The notes beneath the pieces were generated by a model. That model saw nothing but the letters and a program-made list of their open reading frames with translations. It ran no database searches and had not been told where the DNA came from. A program made the translations under genes and the position numbers. Below, piece after piece: positions 3,476 through 32,000 of a stretch of 32,000 bases of DNA. The stretch's first letter is position 1; each line of letters starts with the position of its first letter. The stretch lies in NCBI GenBank assembly GCA_037441475.1, contig JBBISB010000001.1, positions 336,418-368,417 on the forward strand, read 5' to 3'. Source of the stretch: Candidatus Iainarchaeum sp. (GTDB taxonomy: Archaea > Iainarchaeota > Iainarchaeia > Iainarchaeales > CSSED10-239).

Positions 3476-3658
3476 TTATATTAATTCTTTTCCAATCTTT
3501 ATAAAAGCAATTTCTTTATCAAGTCTTTCATGAGAATATAGTTTTTTAGAAAAAGACCCTTCAGGTAATCTTGAATGGATAAATTTTCTTTTCTCTTCCA
3601 AGATATTTATTTTATTTAAATTACTTTTTTTAAAATAATTAACTATCTTTTTAAACAT
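3476..3658 (-). CDS. hypothetical small protein; possibly the N-terminal part of the split JAMM-like gene
   Basis: 60-aa ORF ending in TAA at 3476-3478, directly in frame with the downstream ORF. 'ERLDKEIAFIKIGKE' could supply the upstream Glu of a JAMM fold. Weak evidence. Confidence 0.3.
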   Translation of the reverse strand: MFKKIVNYFKKSNLNKINILEEKRKFIHSRLPEGSFSKKLYSHERLDKEIAFIKIGKELI

Positions 3659-15416: not shown

Positions 15417-15599
15417 TTTTAATCACTAATTATTAGGACATAGGGAATATTTTTTAAATAGTACTTTTATAAAATTAATCATTAAAAAAGTAATTTTTAA
15501 ATTAAAACAATTTTGGGGGAAGTGCTTTTTTAAAAAGAAATATTAGATAAACGTTAACAAACCAAAAACCATTGGGTGCGAGCTGACTGAAACCAGCTA

Positions 15600-15681
15600 C
15601 GCAGAGAATGAGATTCGAACTCATGTAGCACGAGGCTCAAGTTTTCGAGACTTGCGCATTTGACCACTCCGCCATCTCTGC
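15600..15681 (-). tRNA. tRNA-Ser (anticodon CGA)
   Basis: Folded by hand from the minus strand. Acceptor stem is GCAGAGA/TCTCTGC with discriminator G. Anticodon arm is CAAGT-CTCGAAA-ACTTG, giving anticodon CGA. There is a long variable arm (AGCCTCGTGCTAC) and a T arm ATGAG-TTCGAAT-CTCAT. No CCA is encoded. Confidence 0.85.
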
Positions 15682-15710
15682 AAAATATTTTTAATAAAAA
15701 ATAAAAAAAG

Positions 15711-15792
15711 CGCAGAGGACGAGATTCGAACTCGTGTAGCACGAGGCTCAAGCTTTCCAGGCTTGCGCGTTTGACCACTCCGCCACCTCTGC
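15711..15792 (-). tRNA. tRNA-Ser (anticodon GGA)
   Basis: Acceptor stem GCAGAGG/CCTCTGC plus G. Anticodon arm CAAGC-CTGGAAA-GCTTG, long variable arm, T arm ACGAG-TTCGAAT-CTCGT. No CCA is encoded. Confidence 0.85.
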
Positions 15793-15809
15793 ATTTTTTA
15801 AAAAAAAAA

Positions 15810-16142
15810 TTAGTGTACTTGCGAGCCATCTAAAACAGACTCTGATGGTAAAAGTAAAGCATCAAGATCTTTTGAACCTATAGCCAATATCATGCCTTGA
15901 CTTTCAAGACCCATTAATTTTCTAGGCTCTAAATTTACAATAACAGGTATTTGTTTATTAATAACCTCTGATGGTTGATATTTGGTTTTAATACCAGCGA
16001 TTATCTGTCTTTTAAAATCATTGAAGTCAATAATTAATTTCAATAGTTTATCAGAACCTTCAACAATCTCAGCTTCAACAATTGTGCCTATCCTTATATC
16101 AAGCTTTACAAAGTCATTATAAGTTATATTTTCTTTAACCAT
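15810..16142 (-). CDS. stand-alone tRNA-binding domain protein (Trbp111/CsaA-like, MetRS C-terminal-domain homologue)
   Basis: From the internal Met at 16142: 'MVKENITYNDFVKLDIRIGTIVEAEIVEGSDKLLKLIIDFNDFKRQIIAGIKTKYQPSEVINKQIPVIVNLEPRKLMGLESQGMILA', a near-consensus tRNA-binding OB fold. The tracked ORF's upstream 77 codons run across tRNA-Ser(UGA) and are not coding. Confidence 0.85.
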   Translation of the reverse strand: MVKENITYNDFVKLDIRIGTIVEAEIVEGSDKLLKLIIDFNDFKRQIIAGIKTKYQPSEVINKQIPVIVNLEPRKLMGLESQGMILAIGSKDLDALLLPSESVLDGSQVH

Positions 16143-16173
16143 TTTTTTTATCACATTTAAAATAAATAAAATG

Positions 16174-16255
16174 CGCAGAGGACGAGATTCGAACTCGTGT
16201 AGCGCAAGGCTCCAGCTCTCAAGGCTGGCGCGTTTGACCACTCCGCCACCTCTGC
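16174..16255 (-). tRNA. tRNA-Ser (anticodon UGA)
   Basis: Acceptor stem GCAGAGG/CCTCTGC plus G. Anticodon arm CCAGC-CTTGAGA-GCTGG, long variable arm (AGCCTTGCGCTAC), T arm ACGAG-TTCGAAT-CTCGT. No CCA is encoded. Confidence 0.85.
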
Positions 16256-21596: not shown

Positions 21597-22202
21597 TTAC
21601 TTATATTTTTCAATAGGTAATTCTTCAATACCATCTTTTTTAATTACAACAATCTTTATTCCATCCCCACCTGTAAAAAGATCTCTTTTCTTTGCAGAGG
21701 TAATAGCTTCTTTTGCAATTTCAATTGCATCTTTAACAGTTAAAGAGGATTTGTAGTTTTTATCAAGAACACTTAAAGCAAGTTCTGAACCAGATCCTGA
21801 GAAAGAAAAATTTTCTTCCTTTGAAAAACCACCAAGCATGTCAAGAGAATAAAGGTCTTGATCTGAACCTGCAAGTATTAATTGAGAGTAGTAAGGGATC
21901 ATTTTACTTGAGTTTAAGATGTTTGATAAAAGAGTAACACATGATTTTGTGCTTAAAGCCCTTTTATGTTCAAGCTCATAAAGGTTTGCATGATTTTGTA
22001 AGTATCTAACTAAGACCATGGCATCTCCAACTGAACCTGCAATTGTCATTGCTATTCTGTCGTTTATTTTATATATTTTTGTTGTGTTGTTGTTAACAGC
22101 TAAGTTACCCATAGAAGCTTGCATGTCTGCTGCTAAGATGATACCATCTTTTGCAACAATACCAACTGTTGTTGTGCCTGTCTTTAATGTTTTATCTGTC
22201 AA
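21597..22202 (-). CDS. psmB: proteasome subunit beta
   Basis: A short propeptide followed by 'KTGTTTVGIVAKDGIILAADMQAS', with the catalytic Thr after Gly. 201 aa. The first 21 codons lie inside repeat copy A. Confidence 0.9.
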   Translation of the reverse strand: MTDKTLKTGTTTVGIVAKDGIILAADMQASMGNLAVNNNTTKIYKINDRIAMTIAGSVGDAMVLVRYLQNHANLYELEHKRALSTKSCVTLLSNILNSSKMIPYYSQLILAGSDQDLYSLDMLGGFSKEENFSFSGSGSELALSVLDKNYKSSLTVKDAIEIAKEAITSAKKRDLFTGGDGIKIVVIKKDGIEELPIEKYK

Positions 22203-22272
22203 AATTATTCACCTTTCTTATTACTTAATTTTTGAACGAAATTAACGTTTTCAAAACTTGTAGAATCAAAAA

Positions 22273-22914
22273 CTAACTTTGCAAAAACAATTGTTTAAAA
22301 TAATCTATTTCTTGAGGAACTCCAAAAGGAAGTTCTACTGAAACATCTTTTTCTTTAGAGCTTAACTTTAATTGTCCAGCAGGCATAAAGTAAAAAGACT
22401 TTTCTAAAAGAAGAGGTAATTTGTCTTCATCCTTTGAAATAACTTTATTAATTGTTATTGTGTATTCTAAATCTCTTCCAGCATAGATAGGGTTAAAGTC
22501 AACCTTTACTCTTCCACCAGAAATTGAAATTATCTTACCTGATTTGTTGCCTATGTTTACAAATAAACCAACTTCAGGTCTTACATTTTCTTTTTTAAAT
22601 TCATTTAAAGAAACAAGTTCTACTTTATTTGAATCTCTATCTTTGAAAGCTTGTTCTTTTTTTAAGAGGAAAGTTTTTGTTTTTCCTATATCTAAATCAG
22701 AGATATTATCTTCAATACCTTTTAATAATTCGCCAGTTCCGAAAAGATAGTTTAAAGGTTTATATTCATTCTTTAAGTTTAAGTTATTTTCTTTTGCCAC
22801 TTCTTTTTTAGTTGTGTCAAGTATTTCTTTTGTGTTTGCGTCTTTTAAAATAAGATCAATTTCTACAATGTCTTTTGTTTTTATCATATTAATAAACCTC
22901 TTTTGTGTAATCAT
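22273..22914 (-). CDS. FKBP-type peptidyl-prolyl cis-trans isomerase (archaeal long type with insert-in-flap), copy A
   Basis: 'KPLNYLFGTGELLKGIEDNISDLDIGKTKTFLL', a long insert, then 'GRVKVDFNPIYAGRDLEYTITINKV' (the FNHPLAGK.L.F pattern). The likely true start is the Met at 22887 ('MIKTKD'). Confidence 0.75.
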   Translation of the reverse strand: MITQKRFINMIKTKDIVEIDLILKDANTKEILDTTKKEVAKENNLNLKNEYKPLNYLFGTGELLKGIEDNISDLDIGKTKTFLLKKEQAFKDRDSNKVELVSLNEFKKENVRPEVGLFVNIGNKSGKIISISGGRVKVDFNPIYAGRDLEYTITINKVISKDEDKLPLLLEKSFYFMPAGQLKLSSKEKDVSVELPFGVPQEIDYFKQLFLQS

Positions 22915-23117
22915 AGAATTAATGTTTTCATTTACCTATTTACAACTGTTTTATAAACTTTAAAGCAGTATCAAAAATAGGATTTTTATAAAAGTAGATG
23001 TTTTATATAATATATTAATGAACCGATTTGCTTAAAAAGATTTGTTTTTATGTAGCTTTAAGGGGTAAGCACAAATTATTTATTAAATTTTAAAATATTA
23101 AAGAAATTATAAAAAAA

Positions 23118-23471
23118 TTACTCTAACAACCATTTCCAGACAGGAATTACTTTATTATCTATATTAAACTCATCTTCTTGATAATAAGTTAATATGTACC
23201 CTATTTTTAATTTAAAAAAATCCATAGCGAAAACTAATCCTTTAATTTCCCTATCTTTATTATTATCATTTAACTCAAAACAAACTTGATAAGTTTCAAA
23301 AGATTTATCTTTAGCTATAAAATCACATTCAGAATTATCTTCATTAAAATAAGTAATTTCTTTTCCTTTTCTAATCAATTCTAAAAAAACAATATTTTCA
23401 AGTAAATGTCCTTTATCTTGATATCTTTGGAAAGTTAATATATTTCTTAAACAAGATTGGCACAGAATATG
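23118..23471 (-). pseudogene. 3' remnant of a DUF4143-type AAA ATPase gene, copy A
   Basis: The open frame from 23471 reads '...QRYQDKGHLLENIVFLELIRKGKEITYFNEDNSECDFIAKD...IPVWKWLLE'. This matches only the C-terminal ~110 aa of archaeal ATPases of this type (G.L.EN.V..EL...G....Y......E.DF.). No P-loop region lies upstream. Confidence 0.55.
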
Positions 23472-23551
23472 CTAAAAAAATCTAATTTGTTGGCATTAAC
23501 AGTTCCAATAAAACCAACAATATTTTTAATGTTAAATTAAACATAAATATA

Positions 23552-24562
23552 TTATTTAATATTTAAAGTACTTAAGAGATTATAAGAGTTTGAATGCTTT
23601 GCATAATCTAAAAAAGAAAAAAGAGAAGCCCTGAAGTTAAGTATAGAAATTTTATTTTGTTTTAGTAAATAATTATTTTTATTTTGCCTTTTTAGAAATC
23701 TTTTAACATTTGATTTTTTTAATCTTATGTTTGAAGGAAATACCTTATAACCTAAAAAATCAACACCTTTGCTTACTAAGTTAATATAAATTTTATTCTT
23801 TGGAACATCTAATAATAGTTCTTTACTTAAAAATAATTTAATTTTTCTTCTAAAAACCTTTAAATCTTTTTTAGAGTTTGAAAATATTAAAAAATCATCA
23901 ACATATCTATAATAAAGTTTAATTTTCAAAGTATGCTTAACATATTGATCTAATTGATTTAGATAAATATTTGCAAACAACTGAGAAGTTAAATTACCTA
24001 TAGGAATTCCTTTTTCAGTATTATTTACATTAAAAGAATAACTATCAATTATTTGATATATTAGAGAAAGTAACCTTTCATCCTTAATTCTTTTTTTGAT
24101 TATTCTTTTTAAAGTGGGTTTATGAACAGAAGGAAAGTATTTTTTAACATCTTGGTTTAAATAATATTTTGGAGGATTAGTGGTTTGAATGACATTTTTA
24201 ATTTCAAAAAGGCCTTTATGTGTGCCTTTTCCTTTTCTGCAAGCAAAGGAATTATTTATAAAAGTTTTATCAAAAATAGGTTCTATGATATTAATTATTG
24301 AATGTTGAACAACTACATCTCTAAAAGTTGGAGCACTAATAATTCTTTATTTAGGTTCATAAACTTTAAAACTTCTGTAAGGAGAAAATTGAAAATTTTC
24401 TGAAATTAATTGATCTTGTAATAAAAATAGCTCCTTTTCTAAATTTGTTGTAAATTGCAAGACATATTTTTTATTAGGTGTTGATTTTTTTGCTTTTTTA
24501 TAAGCATTAAAAAGATTTTTAAAAGAAGTAAACTCTTTCCAAAGGTTATTGTATGATTTCAT
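23552..24562 (-). pseudogene. DGR-type reverse transcriptase with one in-frame TAA (24347-24349), copy A
   Basis: I hand-translated 23981-24346 in the same frame as both tracked ORFs. It reads '...FKVYEPK*RIISAPTFRDVVVQHSIINIIEPIFDKTFINNSFACRKGKGTHKGL...KYFPSVHKPTL...GIPIGNLTSQLFANIYLNQLD...YYRYVDDFLIF...GVDFLGYKV'. RT motifs 1-7 are all present and the stop is the only disruption. 'IGNLTSQ' is the DGR-clade signature in motif 4. Confidence 0.85.
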
Positions 24563-24799
24563 TTTTAAAAAAACTTATTTAAAGTTAAAAGTTATTACAG
24601 ATTTCTTTTTACAGACTATAAAAATACTAAATGTAATAACTTATCTTTATATTTGATTTTTTAACATAAAAACAATAAAGTTTTTATGGCATACATCATA
24701 TGCAATCAGGAAACATTTTACAGATGTAGTTTTTTAAAATATTCGCTTTATATGTTTTTTTAAAAAAAACAAAAATATAACATATAAACTCTGATAAAA

Positions 24800-24821
24800 C
24801 CTTATTTCTTTAAAAATAAGG
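24800..24821 (-). terminator. hairpin plus T-run just downstream of the DGR target stop, copy A
   Basis: 8-bp stem ccttattt (24800-24807) / aaataagg (24814-24821) with a 6-nt loop. It starts 5 nt after the TAG on the minus strand and is followed by TTTTA. Confidence 0.35.
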
Positions 24822-24826
24822 AGAAA

Positions 24827-26194
24827 CTACTGAACGCAGCGCAAGCCGAAGAAGTCGGTCCGGCTTGTAGGAATGTTGGTCAAGTTCAGGGACAAGACAC
24901 CGGCACTAGAGTCATTGAGCCAGCGACCACCGCGCAAAAAAGCGTATACAGTCTTACTTGTGTCATTTATATTACTATAAGTATAAAGCCTACCAACACC
25001 ATTATTCGCATTATAACTATTACTTGTAAGTAAAAATAAATCTTTATACTTTAAAGTAGTGTTACCTAAATTATCAGAATAAATATATTGGTTTCCTCCA
25101 CCACCTTTTGAATAATCAAAAAAATTAAAGCCAGAAGTATAATTACTATCATCAGAATTATTAAATCCATCAGGCTGGTCTTTTATTTGGATAGTATCAC
25201 TAGTCCATTGCCAAACATTACCTGCTAAATCCCAAATTACCTCTCCATTAGTTAAAGTTAAAGTTCTTTTTGTAATTCCTGAAAGCTCGTCAAAACCGTC
25301 CATGGCCCTAGAGGATGATGAATTTCCTCTTGGAAGGTATCCTGAACCAACTTCTCCACCAGACCAGTTGGAGGGAACTTGTTCAATATTTCTTACAATT
25401 GTCATCCATTCGTTATTAGTTATTAAATGACCACCGATAGCTTCACAAGCGGCTATTGCTTCGGTTTGGGTAATTCTTACTATTGGAGAGCCTTCTGGAG
25501 TGGACACTAAGGTTCCTGGTGTTGGACATAATTCATAATTATAAGTATTAGATGTTAAAGAACCAGTATTACAATTAGGATAATCAGCTACAAGATTTCC
25601 TTTGCCATCACCATTTACATCCATTTTCATCTGATATTTTGAAACACAAAAACCCCCTCTTTCATTCATTGTACCATAAAGGTGGTTTCCAGGAACAGGA
25701 ATAAATCCTTCTGGACAAGAAGATGGATATTTAATATTTTGACGAAGAGAGGTTTTGGTTATCATTCTATCATTATCAAGGTAAAAAACAATATTTAAGT
25801 TGTCTTCTAAAATACCATGATCAATTACTGCTGTCTGGTTTGCAGTAATTGTTACTGGTGGGTCTAATGGATTAATATTAGTATTTCCGTGCAAGGAATA
25901 ACCAGTTATGGTTAAAGAGGTGAAAGGAGAACCATAAGGAGGATTATACTCTAAAATAGTTCTGCCATTTATGGAATCTTTTACTTGCAAATAAAAAGAA
26001 GTTTCTGATTCTGTGTAAATATCAAGACTTGAGGTTTTACCTAAGGAATCATTGGTAAAACCTTTTCCCCAAGAAACAATTATTGCAATAATAGCAACAG
26101 CAACAACTATTAAAAGAATGGTTGCAATTAATGGAGAAATTCCTTTCCTTTTTTTATTTTCCATTTGAAAAAAAATATTTGTATCTATACTCAT
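24827..26194 (-). CDS. DGR target protein: class III (type IV pilin-like) signal peptide plus C-terminal FGE-sulfatase/C-type-lectin-fold domain, copy A
   Basis: N-terminus 'MENKKRKGISPLIATILLIVVAVAIIAIIVSW' is an archaeal pilin-type signal, so the likely start is the Met at 26164. FGE/SUMF1-type motifs are 'GGHLITNNEWMTIVRN', 'WDLAGNVWQWTSD' and 'AFLRGGRW...FFGLRCVQ*'. Confidence 0.8.
   Translation of the reverse strand: MSIDTNIFFQMENKKRKGISPLIATILLIVVAVAIIAIIVSWGKGFTNDSLGKTSSLDIYTESETSFYLQVKDSINGRTILEYNPPYGSPFTSLTITGYSLHGNTNINPLDPPVTITANQTAVIDHGILEDNLNIVFYLDNDRMITKTSLRQNIKYPSSCPEGFIPVPGNHLYGTMNERGGFCVSKYQMKMDVNGDGKGNLVADYPNCNTGSLTSNTYNYELCPTPGTLVSTPEGSPIVRITQTEAIAACEAIGGHLITNNEWMTIVRNIEQVPSNWSGGEVGSGYLPRGNSSSSRAMDGFDELSGITKRTLTLTNGEVIWDLAGNVWQWTSDTIQIKDQPDGFNNSDDSNYTSGFNFFDYSKGGGGNQYIYSDNLGNTTLKYKDLFLLTSNSYNANNGVGRLYTYSNINDTSKTVYAFLRGGRWLNDSSAGVLSLNLTNIPTSRTDFFGLRCVQ
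24830..24946 (-). other. candidate DGR variable region (VR), copy A
   Basis: The last ~39 codons ('AFLRGGRWLNDSSAGVLSLNLTNIPTSRTDFFGLRCVQ') form a compositional island. By hand count about 61 of 105 nt in 24831-24935 are G+C, against very AT-rich flanks. This is the position where CLec/FGE-fold DGR targets carry their VR. Confidence 0.6.
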
Positions 26195-26203
26195 AAATGA
26201 TCT

Positions 26204-26268
26204 AACATAATATATATAAACATAATATATATAAACATAATATATATAAACAAATTATATATATATAA
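26204..26268. repeat. 15-bp tandem repeat, three perfect copies plus a degenerate fourth
   Basis: 'cataatatatataaa' occurs at 26206-26220, 26221-26235 and 26236-26250, followed by 'caaattatatatata'. It lies directly upstream (minus strand) of the DGR target gene. Each unit reads 'tttatatatattatg' on the coding strand, which is TATA-box-like. Confidence 0.8.
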
Positions 26269-26331
26269 GAAGATAATATTTATAAAGATATCTAAAGTAA
26301 ATAAAACTAATAAGTTAAAAAAAAATAAAAA

Positions 26332-26535
26332 TTACTTAGTAATTTTTACAAAATAATAAATATCTTTTCCGATACTTGAAAAATCAACCTTAACATTATT
26401 TACAGCCATTTTATCTAAAAAATCCTTATATGAAATACCAGCAATGTCTGCTACCTCTGATAAAGAAATACTTCTTATTTGATATGCTTTAAAAACTAAC
26501 TTTAGATTTTTAGAGAATTTATTATTTATATCCAT
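26332..26535 (-). CDS. UPF0175-like small HTH protein (antitoxin-like), probable
   Basis: 67 aa. 'AYQIRSISLSEVADIAGISYKDFLDKMAVNNV' follows the UPF0175 pattern (LY....ISLG.AAE.AG.S...F...L....I). No PIN or DUF3368 partner is adjacent. Confidence 0.45.
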   Translation of the reverse strand: MDINNKFSKNLKLVFKAYQIRSISLSEVADIAGISYKDFLDKMAVNNVKVDFSSIGKDIYYFVKITK

Positions 26536-26645
26536 AAATATATTATTTATAATAATCTTTTTAAAAGTGAGTAATTAATAAAAAGAAGTATTATATTATC
26601 TTCTCTATAATAGTATATAGAAAGAAATAATAAAAAAAGAAAAAC

Positions 26646-28538
26646 ATGTATTCAAAAGAAGAAATTACAAAGAAGATACTTGACATTAACAAATACGAAA
26701 AACTAAACCCTATGCAAAACTTAGCAAAAGAACATATAGGGACAAACACACTTATCACAACACCAACAGCTTCTGGAAAAACAACAGTCTTTGAAATGTA
26801 CATGCTTGACTGTTTATTAAACAAGAAAAAAAAAGCAATTTACATCTCTCCCTTAAAAGCATTAACAACAGAACATTATTTAGAAACTAAAAGAAAGTTT
26901 TCAAAAGAATTTAACCTAAAAATAGGACTTTCAACTGGAGACCTGGATTCAAGTAACAAATATCTTGAAAGTTATGATGTTTTATTTTTAACATATGAAA
27001 AATTTGATTCAATTCTAAGACATAAACCTTCATGGTTAAAAAATATTGGACTTTTAACAATTGATGAAATTCATGAGCTTGGATCAAATAGAGGTTCAAC
27101 CTTAGAAGTTATAATTACACAACTAAAACATAGCTATAGAGAAATTACTCTTCTAGGGTTATCTGCAACCATTAAAAACTCAAAAGAAATATCTGATTGG
27201 CTTTCTGCAAAACTAGTTTTAAGTAACTACCGACCAGTTCCTCTTGAAACTGGAGTTTTTTATAATGATTCTATTTACTTTGAAGATAGAAAAGAAGACT
27301 TAACTTCTCTTACTGTTAAAAACATTAATTTAGGATCAATCATTAAAGACACTTTAAAGAAAGAAAAACAAGCAATTGTTTTTTGTGCATCTAGAAAAAA
27401 TGCAATGTCGTTTGCAAAAAAATATGGAAAAATAATCTCTGGAAGTTTAAAAGATGAAGAATACCAAAAACTTAGAAAAGCCTCTCAAGAGGTTTTAGAA
27501 GCTTTAGAACACCCAACAAAACAATGTGAAAAACTTTCTCTTTCTCTTTTAATGGGTTCAGCATTTCATCATGCAGGACTGGTCTATAAACAAAGAGAAG
27601 TGGTTGAAGAAAATTTTAAGAAAGGAAACATCAAAGTTATTTTTGCAACACCAACTCTTGCAGCTGGAATTAACCTACCAGCCTTTAGGGTGATTATAAA
27701 CAGTGTTTTTAGATTTTCAGAAGGATCAATGGTTCCAATACCAGTTAATGAATTTCAACAAATGGCAGGAAGAGCAGGAAGACCAAGGTATGATAAAAAA
27801 GGAGAGGCAATCTGTGTGGTTAACAAAGAAGGAGATATACCTAAGATATATAACACATATATAATATCTGGACCTTCAAACATAGACTCACAACTATCTA
27901 AAATAAACATCCTAAGAGGACATCTTTTATCAATGATTCTCATAAACAACCTTAGGTCTTTAGAAGAAGTAATCTCTTATATTTCTAAAACATTTTATTA
28001 TTTTGTTTATGGAAACACAAGTGAGATTAGAAAAAACATACAAGAGATTATTTCTGAGTTTATTGGGTATGGTTTTTTAGAAAAGAAAGAAACTGGTTTT
28101 GAGATTACCTCTTTAGGTAAGAAAGTGTGTTATCTTTATATTGATCCTCTTTCAGCAAACAACATCTTAAAAGATTTAGACTTAAAGAAAGAGAAAGATA
28201 CTAAGGTTTATGAAAAAATATTTACAGTTGTTAATACCTCTGAAATGGCGCCTTATCTTGTATACAAGCAAGAGAAAGAAAATGATTTGTTTGTTTTTTT
28301 TGAAGAGATTAGAAAGAACATTTATTTTGAATATGAGGATATTTATCTTTTACAAAAACTATATATGACAAAAATTATTCATGAGTGGATTGAAGAAAGA
28401 GAAGAAAATTCTTTACTTGAAGAATATAACACAACACCTGGACAGATTAGAGATATTATTTCAAGAGCAAAATGGATATGCCACTCTACAGATACCATCT
28501 TTTGCAACAATACCAACTGTTGTTGTGCCTGTCTTTAA
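26646..28538 (+). CDS. Ski2/Hel308-like superfamily 2 helicase, 3'-truncated at the repeat junction
   Basis: Motif I 'TPTASGKTTVFE', motif II 'DEIHELG', motif III 'SAT', then 'FHHAGL', 'ATPTLAAGINLPA' and motif VI 'QMAGRAGRP'. Native sequence ends at codon 615 (28490). The last 15 codons (DTIFCNNTNCCCACL) are antisense to the psmB 5' end. Confidence 0.8.
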   Translation: MYSKEEITKKILDINKYEKLNPMQNLAKEHIGTNTLITTPTASGKTTVFEMYMLDCLLNKKKKAIYISPLKALTTEHYLETKRKFSKEFNLKIGLSTGDLDSSNKYLESYDVLFLTYEKFDSILRHKPSWLKNIGLLTIDEIHELGSNRGSTLEVIITQLKHSYREITLLGLSATIKNSKEISDWLSAKLVLSNYRPVPLETGVFYNDSIYFEDRKEDLTSLTVKNINLGSIIKDTLKKEKQAIVFCASRKNAMSFAKKYGKIISGSLKDEEYQKLRKASQEVLEALEHPTKQCEKLSLSLLMGSAFHHAGLVYKQREVVEENFKKGNIKVIFATPTLAAGINLPAFRVIINSVFRFSEGSMVPIPVNEFQQMAGRAGRPRYDKKGEAICVVNKEGDIPKIYNTYIISGPSNIDSQLSKINILRGHLLSMILINNLRSLEEVISYISKTFYYFVYGNTSEIRKNIQEIISEFIGYGFLEKKETGFEITSLGKKVCYLYIDPLSANNILKDLDLKKEKDTKVYEKIFTVVNTSEMAPYLVYKQEKENDLFVFFEEIRKNIYFEYEDIYLLQKLYMTKIIHEWIEEREENSLLEEYNTTPGQIRDIISRAKWICHSTDTIFCNNTNCCCACL

Positions 28539-28553
28539 TGTTTTATCTGTCAA
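28491..28553 (-). pseudogene. duplicated 5' fragment of psmB (codons 1-21) with its upstream region
   Basis: Identical to 22140-22202 (MTDKTLKTGTTTVGIVAKDGI). Past the junction the frame continues as CRVAYPFCS* through sequence antisense to the helicase. Confidence 0.8.
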
Positions 28554-28623
28554 AATTATTCACCTTTCTTATTACTTAATTTTTGAACGAAATTAACGTT
28601 TTCAAAACTTGTAGAATCAAAAA

Positions 28624-29265
28624 CTAACTTTGCAAAAACAATTGTTTAAAATAATCTATTTCTTGAGGAACTCCAAAAGGAAGTTCTACTGAAACATCTT
28701 TTTCTTTAGAGCTTAACTTTAATTGTCCAGCAGGCATAAAGTAAAAAGACTTTTCTAAAAGAAGAGGTAATTTGTCTTCATCCTTTGAAATAACTTTATT
28801 AATTGTTATTGTGTATTCTAAATCTCTTCCAGCATAGATAGGGTTAAAGTCAACCTTTACTCTTCCACCAGAAATTGAAATTATCTTACCTGATTTGTTG
28901 CCTATGTTTACAAATAAACCAACTTCAGGTCTTACATTTTCTTTTTTAAATTCATTTAAAGAAACAAGTTCTACTTTATTTGAATCTCTATCTTTGAAAG
29001 CTTGTTCTTTTTTTAAGAGGAAAGTTTTTGTTTTTCCTATATCTAAATCAGAGATATTATCTTCAATACCTTTTAATAATTCGCCAGTTCCGAAAAGATA
29101 GTTTAAAGGTTTATATTCATTCTTTAAGTTTAAGTTATTTTCTTTTGCCACTTCTTTTTTAGTTGTGTCAAGTATTTCTTTTGTGTTTGCGTCTTTTAAA
29201 ATAAGATCAATTTCTACAATGTCTTTTGTTTTTATCATATTAATAAACCTCTTTTGTGTAATCAT
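28624..29265 (-). CDS. FKBP-type peptidyl-prolyl isomerase, copy B
   Basis: 213-aa translation identical to 22273-22914. Confidence 0.75.
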   Translation of the reverse strand: MITQKRFINMIKTKDIVEIDLILKDANTKEILDTTKKEVAKENNLNLKNEYKPLNYLFGTGELLKGIEDNISDLDIGKTKTFLLKKEQAFKDRDSNKVELVSLNEFKKENVRPEVGLFVNIGNKSGKIISISGGRVKVDFNPIYAGRDLEYTITINKVISKDEDKLPLLLEKSFYFMPAGQLKLSSKEKDVSVELPFGVPQEIDYFKQLFLQS

Positions 29266-29468
29266 AGAATTAATGTTTTCATTTACCTATTTACAACTGT
29301 TTTATAAACTTTAAAGCAGTATCAAAAATAGGATTTTTATAAAAGTAGATGTTTTATATAATATATTAATGAACCGATTTGCTTAAAAAGATTTGTTTTT
29401 ATGTAGCTTTAAGGGGTAAGCACAAATTATTTATTAAATTTTAAAATATTAAAGAAATTATAAAAAAA

Positions 29469-29822
29469 TTACTCTAACAACCATTTCCAGACAGGAATTA
29501 CTTTATTATCTATATTAAACTCATCTTCTTGATAATAAGTTAATATGTACCCTATTTTTAATTTAAAAAAATCCATAGCGAAAACTAATCCTTTAATTTC
29601 CCTATCTTTATTATTATCATTTAACTCAAAACAAACTTGATAAGTTTCAAAAGATTTATCTTTAGCTATAAAATCACATTCAGAATTATCTTCATTAAAA
29701 TAAGTAATTTCTTTTCCTTTTCTAATCAATTCTAAAAAAACAATATTTTCAAGTAAATGTCCTTTATCTTGATATCTTTGGAAAGTTAATATATTTCTTA
29801 AACAAGATTGGCACAGAATATG
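29469..29822 (-). pseudogene. DUF4143-type ATPase 3' remnant, copy B
   Basis: Identical to 23118-23471. Confidence 0.55.
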
Positions 29823-29902
29823 CTAAAAAAATCTAATTTGTTGGCATTAACAGTTCCAATAAAACCAACAATATTTTTAATGTTAAATTAAACATAAATA
29901 TA

Positions 29903-30913
29903 TTATTTAATATTTAAAGTACTTAAGAGATTATAAGAGTTTGAATGCTTTGCATAATCTAAAAAAGAAAAAAGAGAAGCCCTGAAGTTAAGTATAGAAA
30001 TTTTATTTTGTTTTAGTAAATAATTATTTTTATTTTGCCTTTTTAGAAATCTTTTAACATTTGATTTTTTTAATCTTATGTTTGAAGGAAATACCTTATA
30101 ACCTAAAAAATCAACACCTTTGCTTACTAAGTTAATATAAATTTTATTCTTTGGAACATCTAATAATAGTTCTTTACTTAAAAATAATTTAATTTTTCTT
30201 CTAAAAACCTTTAAATCTTTTTTAGAGTTTGAAAATATTAAAAAATCATCAACATATCTATAATAAAGTTTAATTTTCAAAGTATGCTTAACATATTGAT
30301 CTAATTGATTTAGATAAATATTTGCAAACAACTGAGAAGTTAAATTACCTATAGGAATTCCTTTTTCAGTATTATTTACATTAAAAGAATAACTATCAAT
30401 TATTTGATATATTAGAGAAAGTAACCTTTCATCCTTAATTCTTTTTTTGATTATTCTTTTTAAAGTGGGTTTATGAACAGAAGGAAAGTATTTTTTAACA
30501 TCTTGGTTTAAATAATATTTTGGAGGATTAGTGGTTTGAATGACATTTTTAATTTCAAAAAGGCCTTTATGTGTGCCTTTTCCTTTTCTGCAAGCAAAGG
30601 AATTATTTATAAAAGTTTTATCAAAAATAGGTTCTATGATATTAATTATTGAATGTTGAACAACTACATCTCTAAAAGTTGGAGCACTAATAATTCTTTA
30701 TTTAGGTTCATAAACTTTAAAACTTCTGTAAGGAGAAAATTGAAAATTTTCTGAAATTAATTGATCTTGTAATAAAAATAGCTCCTTTTCTAAATTTGTT
30801 GTAAATTGCAAGACATATTTTTTATTAGGTGTTGATTTTTTTGCTTTTTTATAAGCATTAAAAAGATTTTTAAAAGAAGTAAACTCTTTCCAAAGGTTAT
30901 TGTATGATTTCAT
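29903..30913 (-). pseudogene. DGR-type reverse transcriptase with the same in-frame TAA (30698-30700), copy B
   Basis: Both tracked ORF pieces are identical to copy A and the stop is at the same position. Confidence 0.85.
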
Positions 30914-31177
30914 TTTTAAAAAAACTTATTTAAAGTTAAAAGTTATTACAGATTTCTTTTTACAGACTATAAAAATACTAAATGTAATAACTTATCTTTA
31001 TATTTGATTTTTTAACATAAAAACAATAAAGTTTTTATGGCATACATCATATGCAATCAGGAAACATTTTACAGATGTAGTTTTTTAAAATATTCGCTTT
31101 ATATGTTTTTTTAAAAAAAACAAAAATATAACATATAAACTCTGATAAAACCTTATTTCTTTAAAAATAAGGAGAAA

Positions 31178-32000
31178 CTACTGAACGCAGCGCAAGCCGA
31201 AGAAGTCGGTCCGGCTTGTAGGAATGTTGGTCAAGTTCAGGGACAAGACACCGGCACTAGAGTCATTGAGCCAGCGACCACCGCGCAAAAAAGCGTATAC
31301 AGTCTTACTTGTGTCATTTATATTACTATAAGTATAAAGCCTACCAACACCATTATTCGCATTATAACTATTACTTGTAAGTAAAAATAAATCTTTATAC
31401 TTTAAAGTAGTGTTACCTAAATTATCAGAATAAATATATTGGTTTCCTCCACCACCTTTTGAATAATCAAAAAAATTAAAGCCAGAAGTATAATTACTAT
31501 CATCAGAATTATTAAATCCATCAGGCTGGTCTTTTATTTGGATAGTATCACTAGTCCATTGCCAAACATTACCTGCTAAATCCCAAATTACCTCTCCATT
31601 AGTTAAAGTTAAAGTTCTTTTTGTAATTCCTGAAAGCTCGTCAAAACCGTCCATGGCCCTAGAGGATGATGAATTTCCTCTTGGAAGGTATCCTGAACCA
31701 ACTTCTCCACCAGACCAGTTGGAGGGAACTTGTTCAATATTTCTTACAATTGTCATCCATTCGTTATTAGTTATTAAATGACCACCGATAGCTTCACAAG
31801 CGGCTATTGCTTCGGTTTGGGTAATTCTTACTATTGGAGAGCCTTCTGGAGTGGACACTAAGGTTCCTGGTGTTGGACATAATTCATAATTATAAGTATT
31901 AGATGTTAAAGAACCAGTATTACAATTAGGATAATCAGCTACAAGATTTCCTTTGCCATCACCATTTACATCCATTTTCATCTGATATTTTGAAACACAA
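31178..32000 (-). CDS. DGR target protein, copy B (C-terminal 267 aa visible; 5' part beyond the window)
   Basis: The translation is identical to the C-terminal part of 24827-26194, including the candidate VR (31181-31297). Confidence 0.8.
   Translation of the reverse strand, partial: CVSKYQMKMDVNGDGKGNLVADYPNCNTGSLTSNTYNYELCPTPGTLVSTPEGSPIVRITQTEAIAACEAIGGHLITNNEWMTIVRNIEQVPSNWSGGEVGSGYLPRGNSSSSRAMDGFDELSGITKRTLTLTNGEVIWDLAGNVWQWTSDTIQIKDQPDGFNNSDDSNYTSGFNFFDYSKGGGGNQYIYSDNLGNTTLKYKDLFLLTSNSYNANNGVGRLYTYSNINDTSKTVYAFLRGGRWLNDSSAGVLSLNLTNIPTSRTDFFGLRCVQ

Follow-up and report, generated by a model that had tools for sequence, protein, structure and literature searches.

The diversity-generating retroelement (DGR) found in a 32,000-nt stretch of a Candidatus Iainarchaeum sp. 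genome (assembly GCA_037441475.1, contig JBBISB010000001.1, positions 336,418 to 368,417; hereafter the window) is probably the remnant of a canonical DGR that has suffered a real genomic deletion between the variable region (VR) of its target gene and its template repeat (TR). Working from the letters alone, the original prediction had remarked that neither a TR nor an avd gene lies where this DGR should have them, and had proposed that the TR was remote, lost from a decaying DGR or organized unconventionally. A decaying DGR is the ordinary explanation, and of the three proposals it is loss that agrees with the TR-type flank found next to the VR, with the absence of the segment that separates the 3' ends of VR and TR in relatives and with a stop codon in the reverse transcriptase (RT) gene; the remote and unconventional arrangements are not supported. 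As for the features by which DGRs are recognized, the locus retains an RT of the DGR clade (RVT_1 with the I/LGxxxSQ and YxDD motifs), albeit in a frame broken at codon 72, and a target with a C-type-lectin/FGE-sulfatase fold and a C-terminal VR. It lacks a same-genome TR/VR pair differing almost solely at TR adenines and an avd gene, which is present in the canonical members of the lineage, and in place of a VR-specific downstream recognition sequence unlike that of the TR (initiation of mutagenic homing site, IMH, or flank structure) it has a flank of the TR type.

The junction between the variable region and the TR-type flank

Relatives of the cassette were located through the RT (contigs L005, L006, L007 and L008) and through exact-protein look-ups (L017, L018, L020 and L026-L032). 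Their canonical order, which was read in L006, L008, L017, L018 and L028, and, up to the ends of their contigs, in L020 and L026, comprises the target gene with its VR, a conserved VR flank, an open reading frame (ORF) of 128-136 aa, a bAvd gene of 109-113 aa, the TR, a spacer of 260-276 nt and the RT gene. The bAvd protein (PF22296, E about 1e-21) is encoded in L006, L008, L017, L018, L020 and L026-L032. The VR/TR pairs of L006, L008, L017 and L018 are 121-123 nt long and 83-89% identical, differing at 14-20 of 31 TR adenines and at none of 81 other sites, and to judge from this pattern these relatives appear to be textbook active DGRs. Since L017, L018 and L028 share the gene neighborhood of the window (helicase, UPF0175, target ... 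RT, FKBP26, proteasome), the canonical cassette can be taken as the likely ancestral state of this locus. The nearest relatives of the window, L020 (89% nucleotide identity) and L028 (88%), are canonical as well, and the loss is therefore specific to the lineage of the window.

In alignments A2 and A3 the 5' side of the window VR aligns with the body of the relatives' target genes, and the boundary falls within an invariant stretch common to the 3' ends of VR and TR (Table 1), which is 26 nt long, or 30 nt in L017 and L018. Upstream of this stretch the window is of the VR type, and from 24823 on it carries the relatives' TR flank and not their VR flank. The latter (TAG TTTTTGAAAAAATG...) is strongly conserved in L017 (positions 3531-3600), L018, L006 and L008, where a G-rich GACGGCAA repeat closes it; this candidate recognition element for homing is missing from the window. 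The segment absent from the window corresponds precisely to the interval from the VR 3' end to the TR 3' end (about 1.2 kb, with the VR flank, the 128-aa ORF, avd and the TR), and one deletion of this segment would account for the failure to find either a TR or avd.

Recombination or slippage between the repeats is most likely the cause of the deletion. Starting from an ancestor with the full order of target-VR, VR flank, 128-aa accessory ORF, avd, TR, structured spacer and RT, the VR and the TR would have acted as direct repeats about 1.2 kb apart (start-to-start spacing of 1194-1225 nt in the relatives) with their last 26 nt identical. A crossover, placed by the alignments within this shared stretch, would have removed everything from the VR flank to the TR and left one hybrid repeat, that is, the VR followed by the downstream spacer of the TR and by the RT. 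Deprived of template and Avd, the element could not have diversified its target any longer; the GAA-to-TAA nonsense codon of the RT would have been gained after (or before) the deletion, and the surface protein would persist with an intact frame and a frozen variable tip.

Table 1. Coordinates of the DGR remnant and associated features within the window.
Feature	Position	Strand	Remarks
Target gene, 455 aa	24827..26194	-	Frame intact; archaeal type IV pilin-like N-terminal signal and FGE-sulfatase/C-type-lectin-fold C-terminal domain
Frozen variable region (VR)	24830..24946	-	GC-rich; adenine-biased mismatch to relatives' TRs
Invariant 26-nt 3' end common to VR and TR in relatives	24824..24849	-	Last codons, stop codon and TTT; alignments A2, A3
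Retained TR-RT spacer (DGR RNA 'Sp' region), 264 nt	24563..24826	-	End-to-end homology to relatives' TR-RT spacers
Hairpin with 9-bp stem	24800..24821	-	Starts 5 nt past the stop codon; in relatives follows TR, not VR
Conserved 10-bp stem (inverted repeat of the original prediction)	24590-24599 / 24632-24641	-	A4 columns 213-222 / 264-273
DGR-type RT pseudogene, 336 codons	23552..24562	-	One in-frame TAA at codon 72 (24347-24349); catalytic motifs otherwise intact
86-aa ORF 3' of RT	23118-23378	-	C-terminal remnant of DUF4143 ATPase; 39.8% identity to the Forterrea ATPase (421 aa) within its residues 339-421
Second identical copy of the collapsed cassette (copy B)	28491..32000	-	100% identical to the first copy across 3510 nt inside the window and across 6352 nt genome-wide

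Traces of the ancestral element in the variable region, RT and spacer

The product of the target gene matches the Pfam families FGE-sulfatase (E 2.6e-10) and Pilin_N (E 0.0027) and is 81% identical to the target P0029 of Forterrea. The VR makes up its C-terminus (the last ~37 codons, ~117 nt) and reaches a GC fraction of 0.56, against 0.18 in the spacer and 0.28 in the genome. When compared with the TRs of five relatives, it is mismatched at 16-17 of 30-32 TR-adenine sites and at 7-11 of 77-79 non-adenine sites (Fisher p 2e-6 to 4e-5), and it carries non-A bases at sites where the relatives' TRs have A, up to the last such site (24850). This bias of the mismatches towards TR adenines argues that adenine mutagenesis genuinely produced the window VR and that a DGR once wrote it. 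Most of its differences at non-A sites coincide with sites that are polymorphic among the relatives' TRs.

The absence of a TR extends well beyond the three intervals (24563-24826, 23379-23551 and 22915-23117) for which it had first been claimed. The adenine-tolerant alignment of the VR that had been called for was run on both strands of both contigs of the assembly (769 kb, 28% GC, 89.5% complete) with a 149-nt VR probe, a mismatch opposite a genomic A being free, and the match to a TR that would have contradicted the claim did not appear. A full score (149/149) was reached by the VR and its duplicate alone, over a background of 79 +/- 8, and the next placement in the 769 kb, with 28 non-A mismatches, lies in an A-rich tract. 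A scan for local segments over the genome likewise yielded no TR, with a VR self-score of 126.6, a best score of 14.2 at any other site and a 99.99th percentile of about 10.8. The remark that strings of the VR recur only in repeat copy B was also accurate, the identity between them being 100%. In a similar vein, no Avd-sized ORF separates target and RT, as had been stated: the spacer at 24563-24826 contains no ORF of at least 40 aa, and a tblastn search of the genome with four Avd and four accessory-ORF proteins from relatives returned no true homologue. The single Avd-like match, weak but full-length (C1:394728-395051; 108 aa at 32% identity), falls within a TP_methylase gene and was dismissed as chance, and the 86-aa ORF downstream of the RT was ruled out as a substitute for Avd, given its identity as the C-terminal remnant of a DUF4143 ATPase.

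The RT gene matches RVT_1 (E 2e-22), encodes both IGNLTSQ and YVDD and shares 87% identity with the DGR RT of Forterrea. Its codon 72 has changed from GAA to TAA; the position, within YEPKERIISAP, is Glu in L005, L006, L017, L018 and L020, and recoding of the TAA was ruled out because all relatives have an ordinary Glu codon there. The same TAA is found in Logan contig L013 (run SRR11582163), an independent assembly that is 100% identical to the window from 24849 to 22140. The dN/dS ratio of the RT between the window and its relatives (0.18-0.23) is the same as that of intact RT pairs, and hence the stop appears to be recent relative to the split from L020, to which dS is 0.26. Independently of the junction, the stop codon points to an element that has ceased to be maintained. 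A DGR-type RT in locus L050 (G002:C79) is likewise interrupted by one in-frame TAA, which lies elsewhere, immediately ahead of YMDD, and nonsense decay of DGR RTs is therefore recurrent in these AT-rich genomes.

The spacer had been regarded in the original prediction as the place where a TR should have been. It is instead the conserved and structured TR-RT spacer itself. In alignment A4, which comprises nine spacers (the window and eight relatives), the mean column identity is 77%, and of the 66 pairs predicted by RNAalifold 13 show compensatory changes; the window spacer has a minimum free energy of -50.5 kcal/mol (z = -3.64) and folds better than 200 of 200 shuffles. The stem of the hairpin next to the target stop codon is kept in all nine sequences; L021 has a compensatory change in it and L005 a G-U change. 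The inverted repeat reported in the spacer is real, although it spans 10 bp rather than 9 and its distance to the RT start codon is 27-28 nt instead of 23 nt. By itself it is not significant, since the longest perfect inverted repeat of the spacer is reached by 22 of 300 shuffles, but its pairs are preserved through double changes in L020 (A-U to G-C), L021 (C-G to U-A) and L017. The spacer RNA of the Bordetella phage BPP-1 DGR provides the analogy for its role, and by that analogy the spacer may be the segment of DGR RNA that acts together with the RT.

Recurrence of the collapsed junction and alternative explanations

A census of the family identified a related RT in 10 of 22 species genomes. 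Where enough upstream sequence is present, nine RT loci have part or all of the accessory-ORF-avd block upstream, and the target lies directly upstream of the RT in the window and L005 alone; in L049 a TR lies directly upstream of the RT, with no avd nearby. The L005 contig (JAQVRT010000019.1), from a SPAdes assembly with ~5x coverage, runs from the VR into a TR-type flank and spacer, has neither avd nor TR and encodes an intact RT at least 90% identical to those of its nearest relatives, the canonical L017 and L018. A pattern scan of metagenomes added contig L035 (NPIE01025101.1, positions 1-2391), with the same collapsed junction and again no avd or TR. The 3' 1.1 kb of L035, comprising the VR allele and the TR flank, is 100% identical to canonical L018, and its 5' half is ~72% identical to L018. 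The collapses in the window, L005 and L035 are independent events, and three of them in a small clade are compatible either with a recombination hot spot or with recurrent chimeras at the assembly or population level. DGR cDNA, which holds TR and spacer sequence, could bridge the VR and the spacer and drive the deletion. It is nevertheless improbable, in our estimation, that DGRs with VR/TR direct repeats flanking avd repeatedly promote their own loss through such a collapse, or have in it a reversible off state. A limited search of the literature found no description of a natural VR-TR collapse. In a reconstituted BPP-1 system TR-VR recombination was reported to be rare (PMC12875486), and here the product of such recombination seems to have become the only allele of the genome.

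Several observations weigh against a real deletion, and most of them bear on the possibility of an assembly or population chimera, according to which the canonical cassette persists and the contig jumps from the VR to the TR flank at the shared 3' end, leaving a loop of ~1.2 kb out of the bin. The junction is known from the NCBI assembly alone, and L013 starts at 24849, precisely a single base 3' of the last TR-adenine site; a start at this very point suggests that in the reads of SRR11582163 the TR-type flank is preceded by more than one sequence, with a branch in the read graph, and hints that collapsed and other alleles coexist in that run. Neither a full-length target nor, over the lengths covered, a near-identical fragment was found for SRR11582163 in Logan (lengths of ~83-260 aa for the C-terminal 150 aa, and of ~250 aa upward for the whole protein). 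The locus moreover sits within a perfect 6351-bp tandem duplication, an unusual assembly feature and one that short-read graphs normally do not resolve. The same collapsed shape occurs in three assemblies with canonical nearest relatives, and one of these, L035, is a 2.4-kb contig that is clearly mosaic and carries the exact VR of canonical L018, from which it follows that chimeric contigs of the collapsed shape can arise. Outside the question of assembly, the window VR differs from the TRs at four TR-invariant non-A sites (24912, 24873, 24868 and 24867); these could be bases of the lost TR itself, and drift after its loss is not proven by them.

In spite of these points we consider a chimera unlikely, although it is a live alternative and the chief caveat to the deletion. 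The shared stretch of 26 nt (30 nt in L017 and L018) falls short of the k with which common assemblers work, so that reads across the junction should exist; more specifically, VR-specific base 24850 and TR-flank-specific base 24823 delimit a junction of 28 nt, for which a de Bruijn assembly with k of at least 29 would need real junction reads. Run SRR11582163 is represented in a 15-billion-protein collection by four further genes of the locus, the entries including RT fragments, the 86-aa ORF and the UPF0175 gene, and none of the Avd-homologue contigs traced there comes from this run, some contigs of the large Forterrea Avd clusters being untraced. Exact look-ups of the target and of its 423-aa truncation, cluster listings, homology searches and Avd-related look-ups produced no VR variant and no TR or avd contig from SRR11582163. 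Finally, the RT nonsense codon, present in two assemblies, speaks of decay independently of the junction.

The two readings that grant the element continued activity fare worse. A TR, together with avd, might reside in the unassembled ~10% of this 89.5% complete genome or on another replicon, and remote targets are known for DGRs in general. Varied DGR architectures have been described (Wu et al. 2017, PMC5758913), some of them without avd. A working DGR with a remote TR would not, however, predict that the VR carries the TR's own flank and spacer; the sole RT of the genome has a stop codon, and the TR adjoins the RT in all relatives, so that we give this arrangement next to no credence. It is also very doubtful that the element has become self-templated, in the sense that, since the collapse, template RNA is supplied by the 3' end of the target mRNA together with the spacer, and the VR rewrites its own sequence. 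The VR does now occupy the place of the TR relative to the conserved spacer and RT, L005, whose RT is intact, is laid out in the same way, the starting point of L013 hints at sequences that differ at the last adenine site, and engineered systems that also rewrite their own TR exist, at the cost of eroding its adenines (bioRxiv 10.64898/2026.07.21.739853). Yet avd, which every canonical relative keeps, is gone, the two tandem copies and the Logan contig all carry the RT stop, the canonical flank of the VR, on which homing presumably depends, has been lost, and the VRs of the two tandem copies are identical; polymorphism of the VR is the basis on which DGRs have been classed as active or inactive (PMC8144416), and no VR variants were found in the protein collection. 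A real deletion between VR and TR thus stays the probable reading of the locus.

Genomic setting, comparison with known systems and implications

The host is a small DPANN archaeon of the Forterrea/Iainarchaeum group, as indicated by the archaeal neighbors of the locus (FttA/aCPSF1, a proteasome subunit, a Hel308-like helicase and FKBP26) and by its nearest named relatives, Candidatus Forterrea multitransposorum and a Candidatus Iainarchaeum metagenome-assembled genome (MAG). The genome also has a record under GCA_964526055.1. Target, spacer and RT all lie on the minus strand. In this genome the RT and the FGE-sulfatase target occur at this locus alone, in two identical copies each, as a result of the tandem duplication, in which window 22140-28490 is repeated at 28491-34841 with the whole cassette included. 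The duplication has its boundaries within the genes for the proteasome subunit and the helicase, and of the two helicase copies the first is cut short at 630 aa while the second has its full 704 aa. The ends of Logan contigs L013 and L016 coincide exactly with 22140 and 28491, and the duplication junction is therefore a branch point in independent read graphs. The identity of the two VRs agrees with an inactive DGR, or with an assembler unable to separate the copies. An AT-rich tandem repeat with three copies of a ~15-nt unit lies directly upstream of the target start (26200-26260), and L016 ends within it. Elsewhere in the window, positions 15599-16255 hold a cluster of three tRNA-Ser genes (anticodons CGA, GGA and UGA) that are mutually 84-89% identical and, past the window and downstream of copy B, an 845-aa eRF1 gene with an intein (Intein_splicing and LAGLIDADG) is annotated at L009:1-588.

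The closest known systems are the Forterrea locus (CP045477.1, positions 22897-31226; L028) and Logan contig L020 (SRR14932604), with which the window shares the spacer structure and the AAC-rich template logic, the TR, spacer and RT being 88-89% identical in nucleotide sequence; at the Forterrea locus the likeness extends to the neighborhood, with the Hel308-like helicase and UPF0175 on one side of the cassette and FKBP26 and the proteasome gene on the other. Both relatives keep the 128-aa ORF (124 aa, up to the contig end, in L020), bAvd and the TR, whereas the window has none of the three. The Forterrea RT is 338 aa long without an internal stop, and the L020 RT, cut at the contig end, has none either, in contrast to the TAA at codon 72 in the window. 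The Forterrea locus further contains an insertion sequence, a HicAB pair that is missing at the window locus and, as the gene downstream of the RT, the full 421-aa DUF4143 ATPase of which the window preserves just the 86-aa remnant; the ~340 nt around this remnant have no counterpart in L005, L017 and L018.

The order of the components in the BPP-1 DGR, namely target-VR (mtd), avd, TR, spacer and RT (brt), is that of the ancestral form proposed here, and the two systems are also alike in their adenine-specific VR/TR differences, in a C-type-lectin-fold target with a C-terminal VR and in a structured TR-RT spacer. On the other hand, the window element is archaeal and chromosomal, belongs to a lineage with a 128-aa accessory ORF and has a target with a pilin signal and, unlike BPP-1, its genome has no TR, no avd and a broken RT.

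Relics of this kind are missed by DGR finders that require a TR, but they are still marked by a GC-rich frozen VR and a retained spacer, and the type of flank that follows the VR, VR-type or TR-type, offers a quick diagnosis of collapse. As chimeric contigs can give the same junction, TR-less DGRs in MAGs need read-level checks. The architecture found across the family, with its 128-aa ORF, bAvd and structured spacer, makes a useful reference for archaeal DGRs, and the collapse of the element in the window would illustrate one way in which a DPANN archaeon with a reduced genome may lose diversification and yet keep its surface protein.

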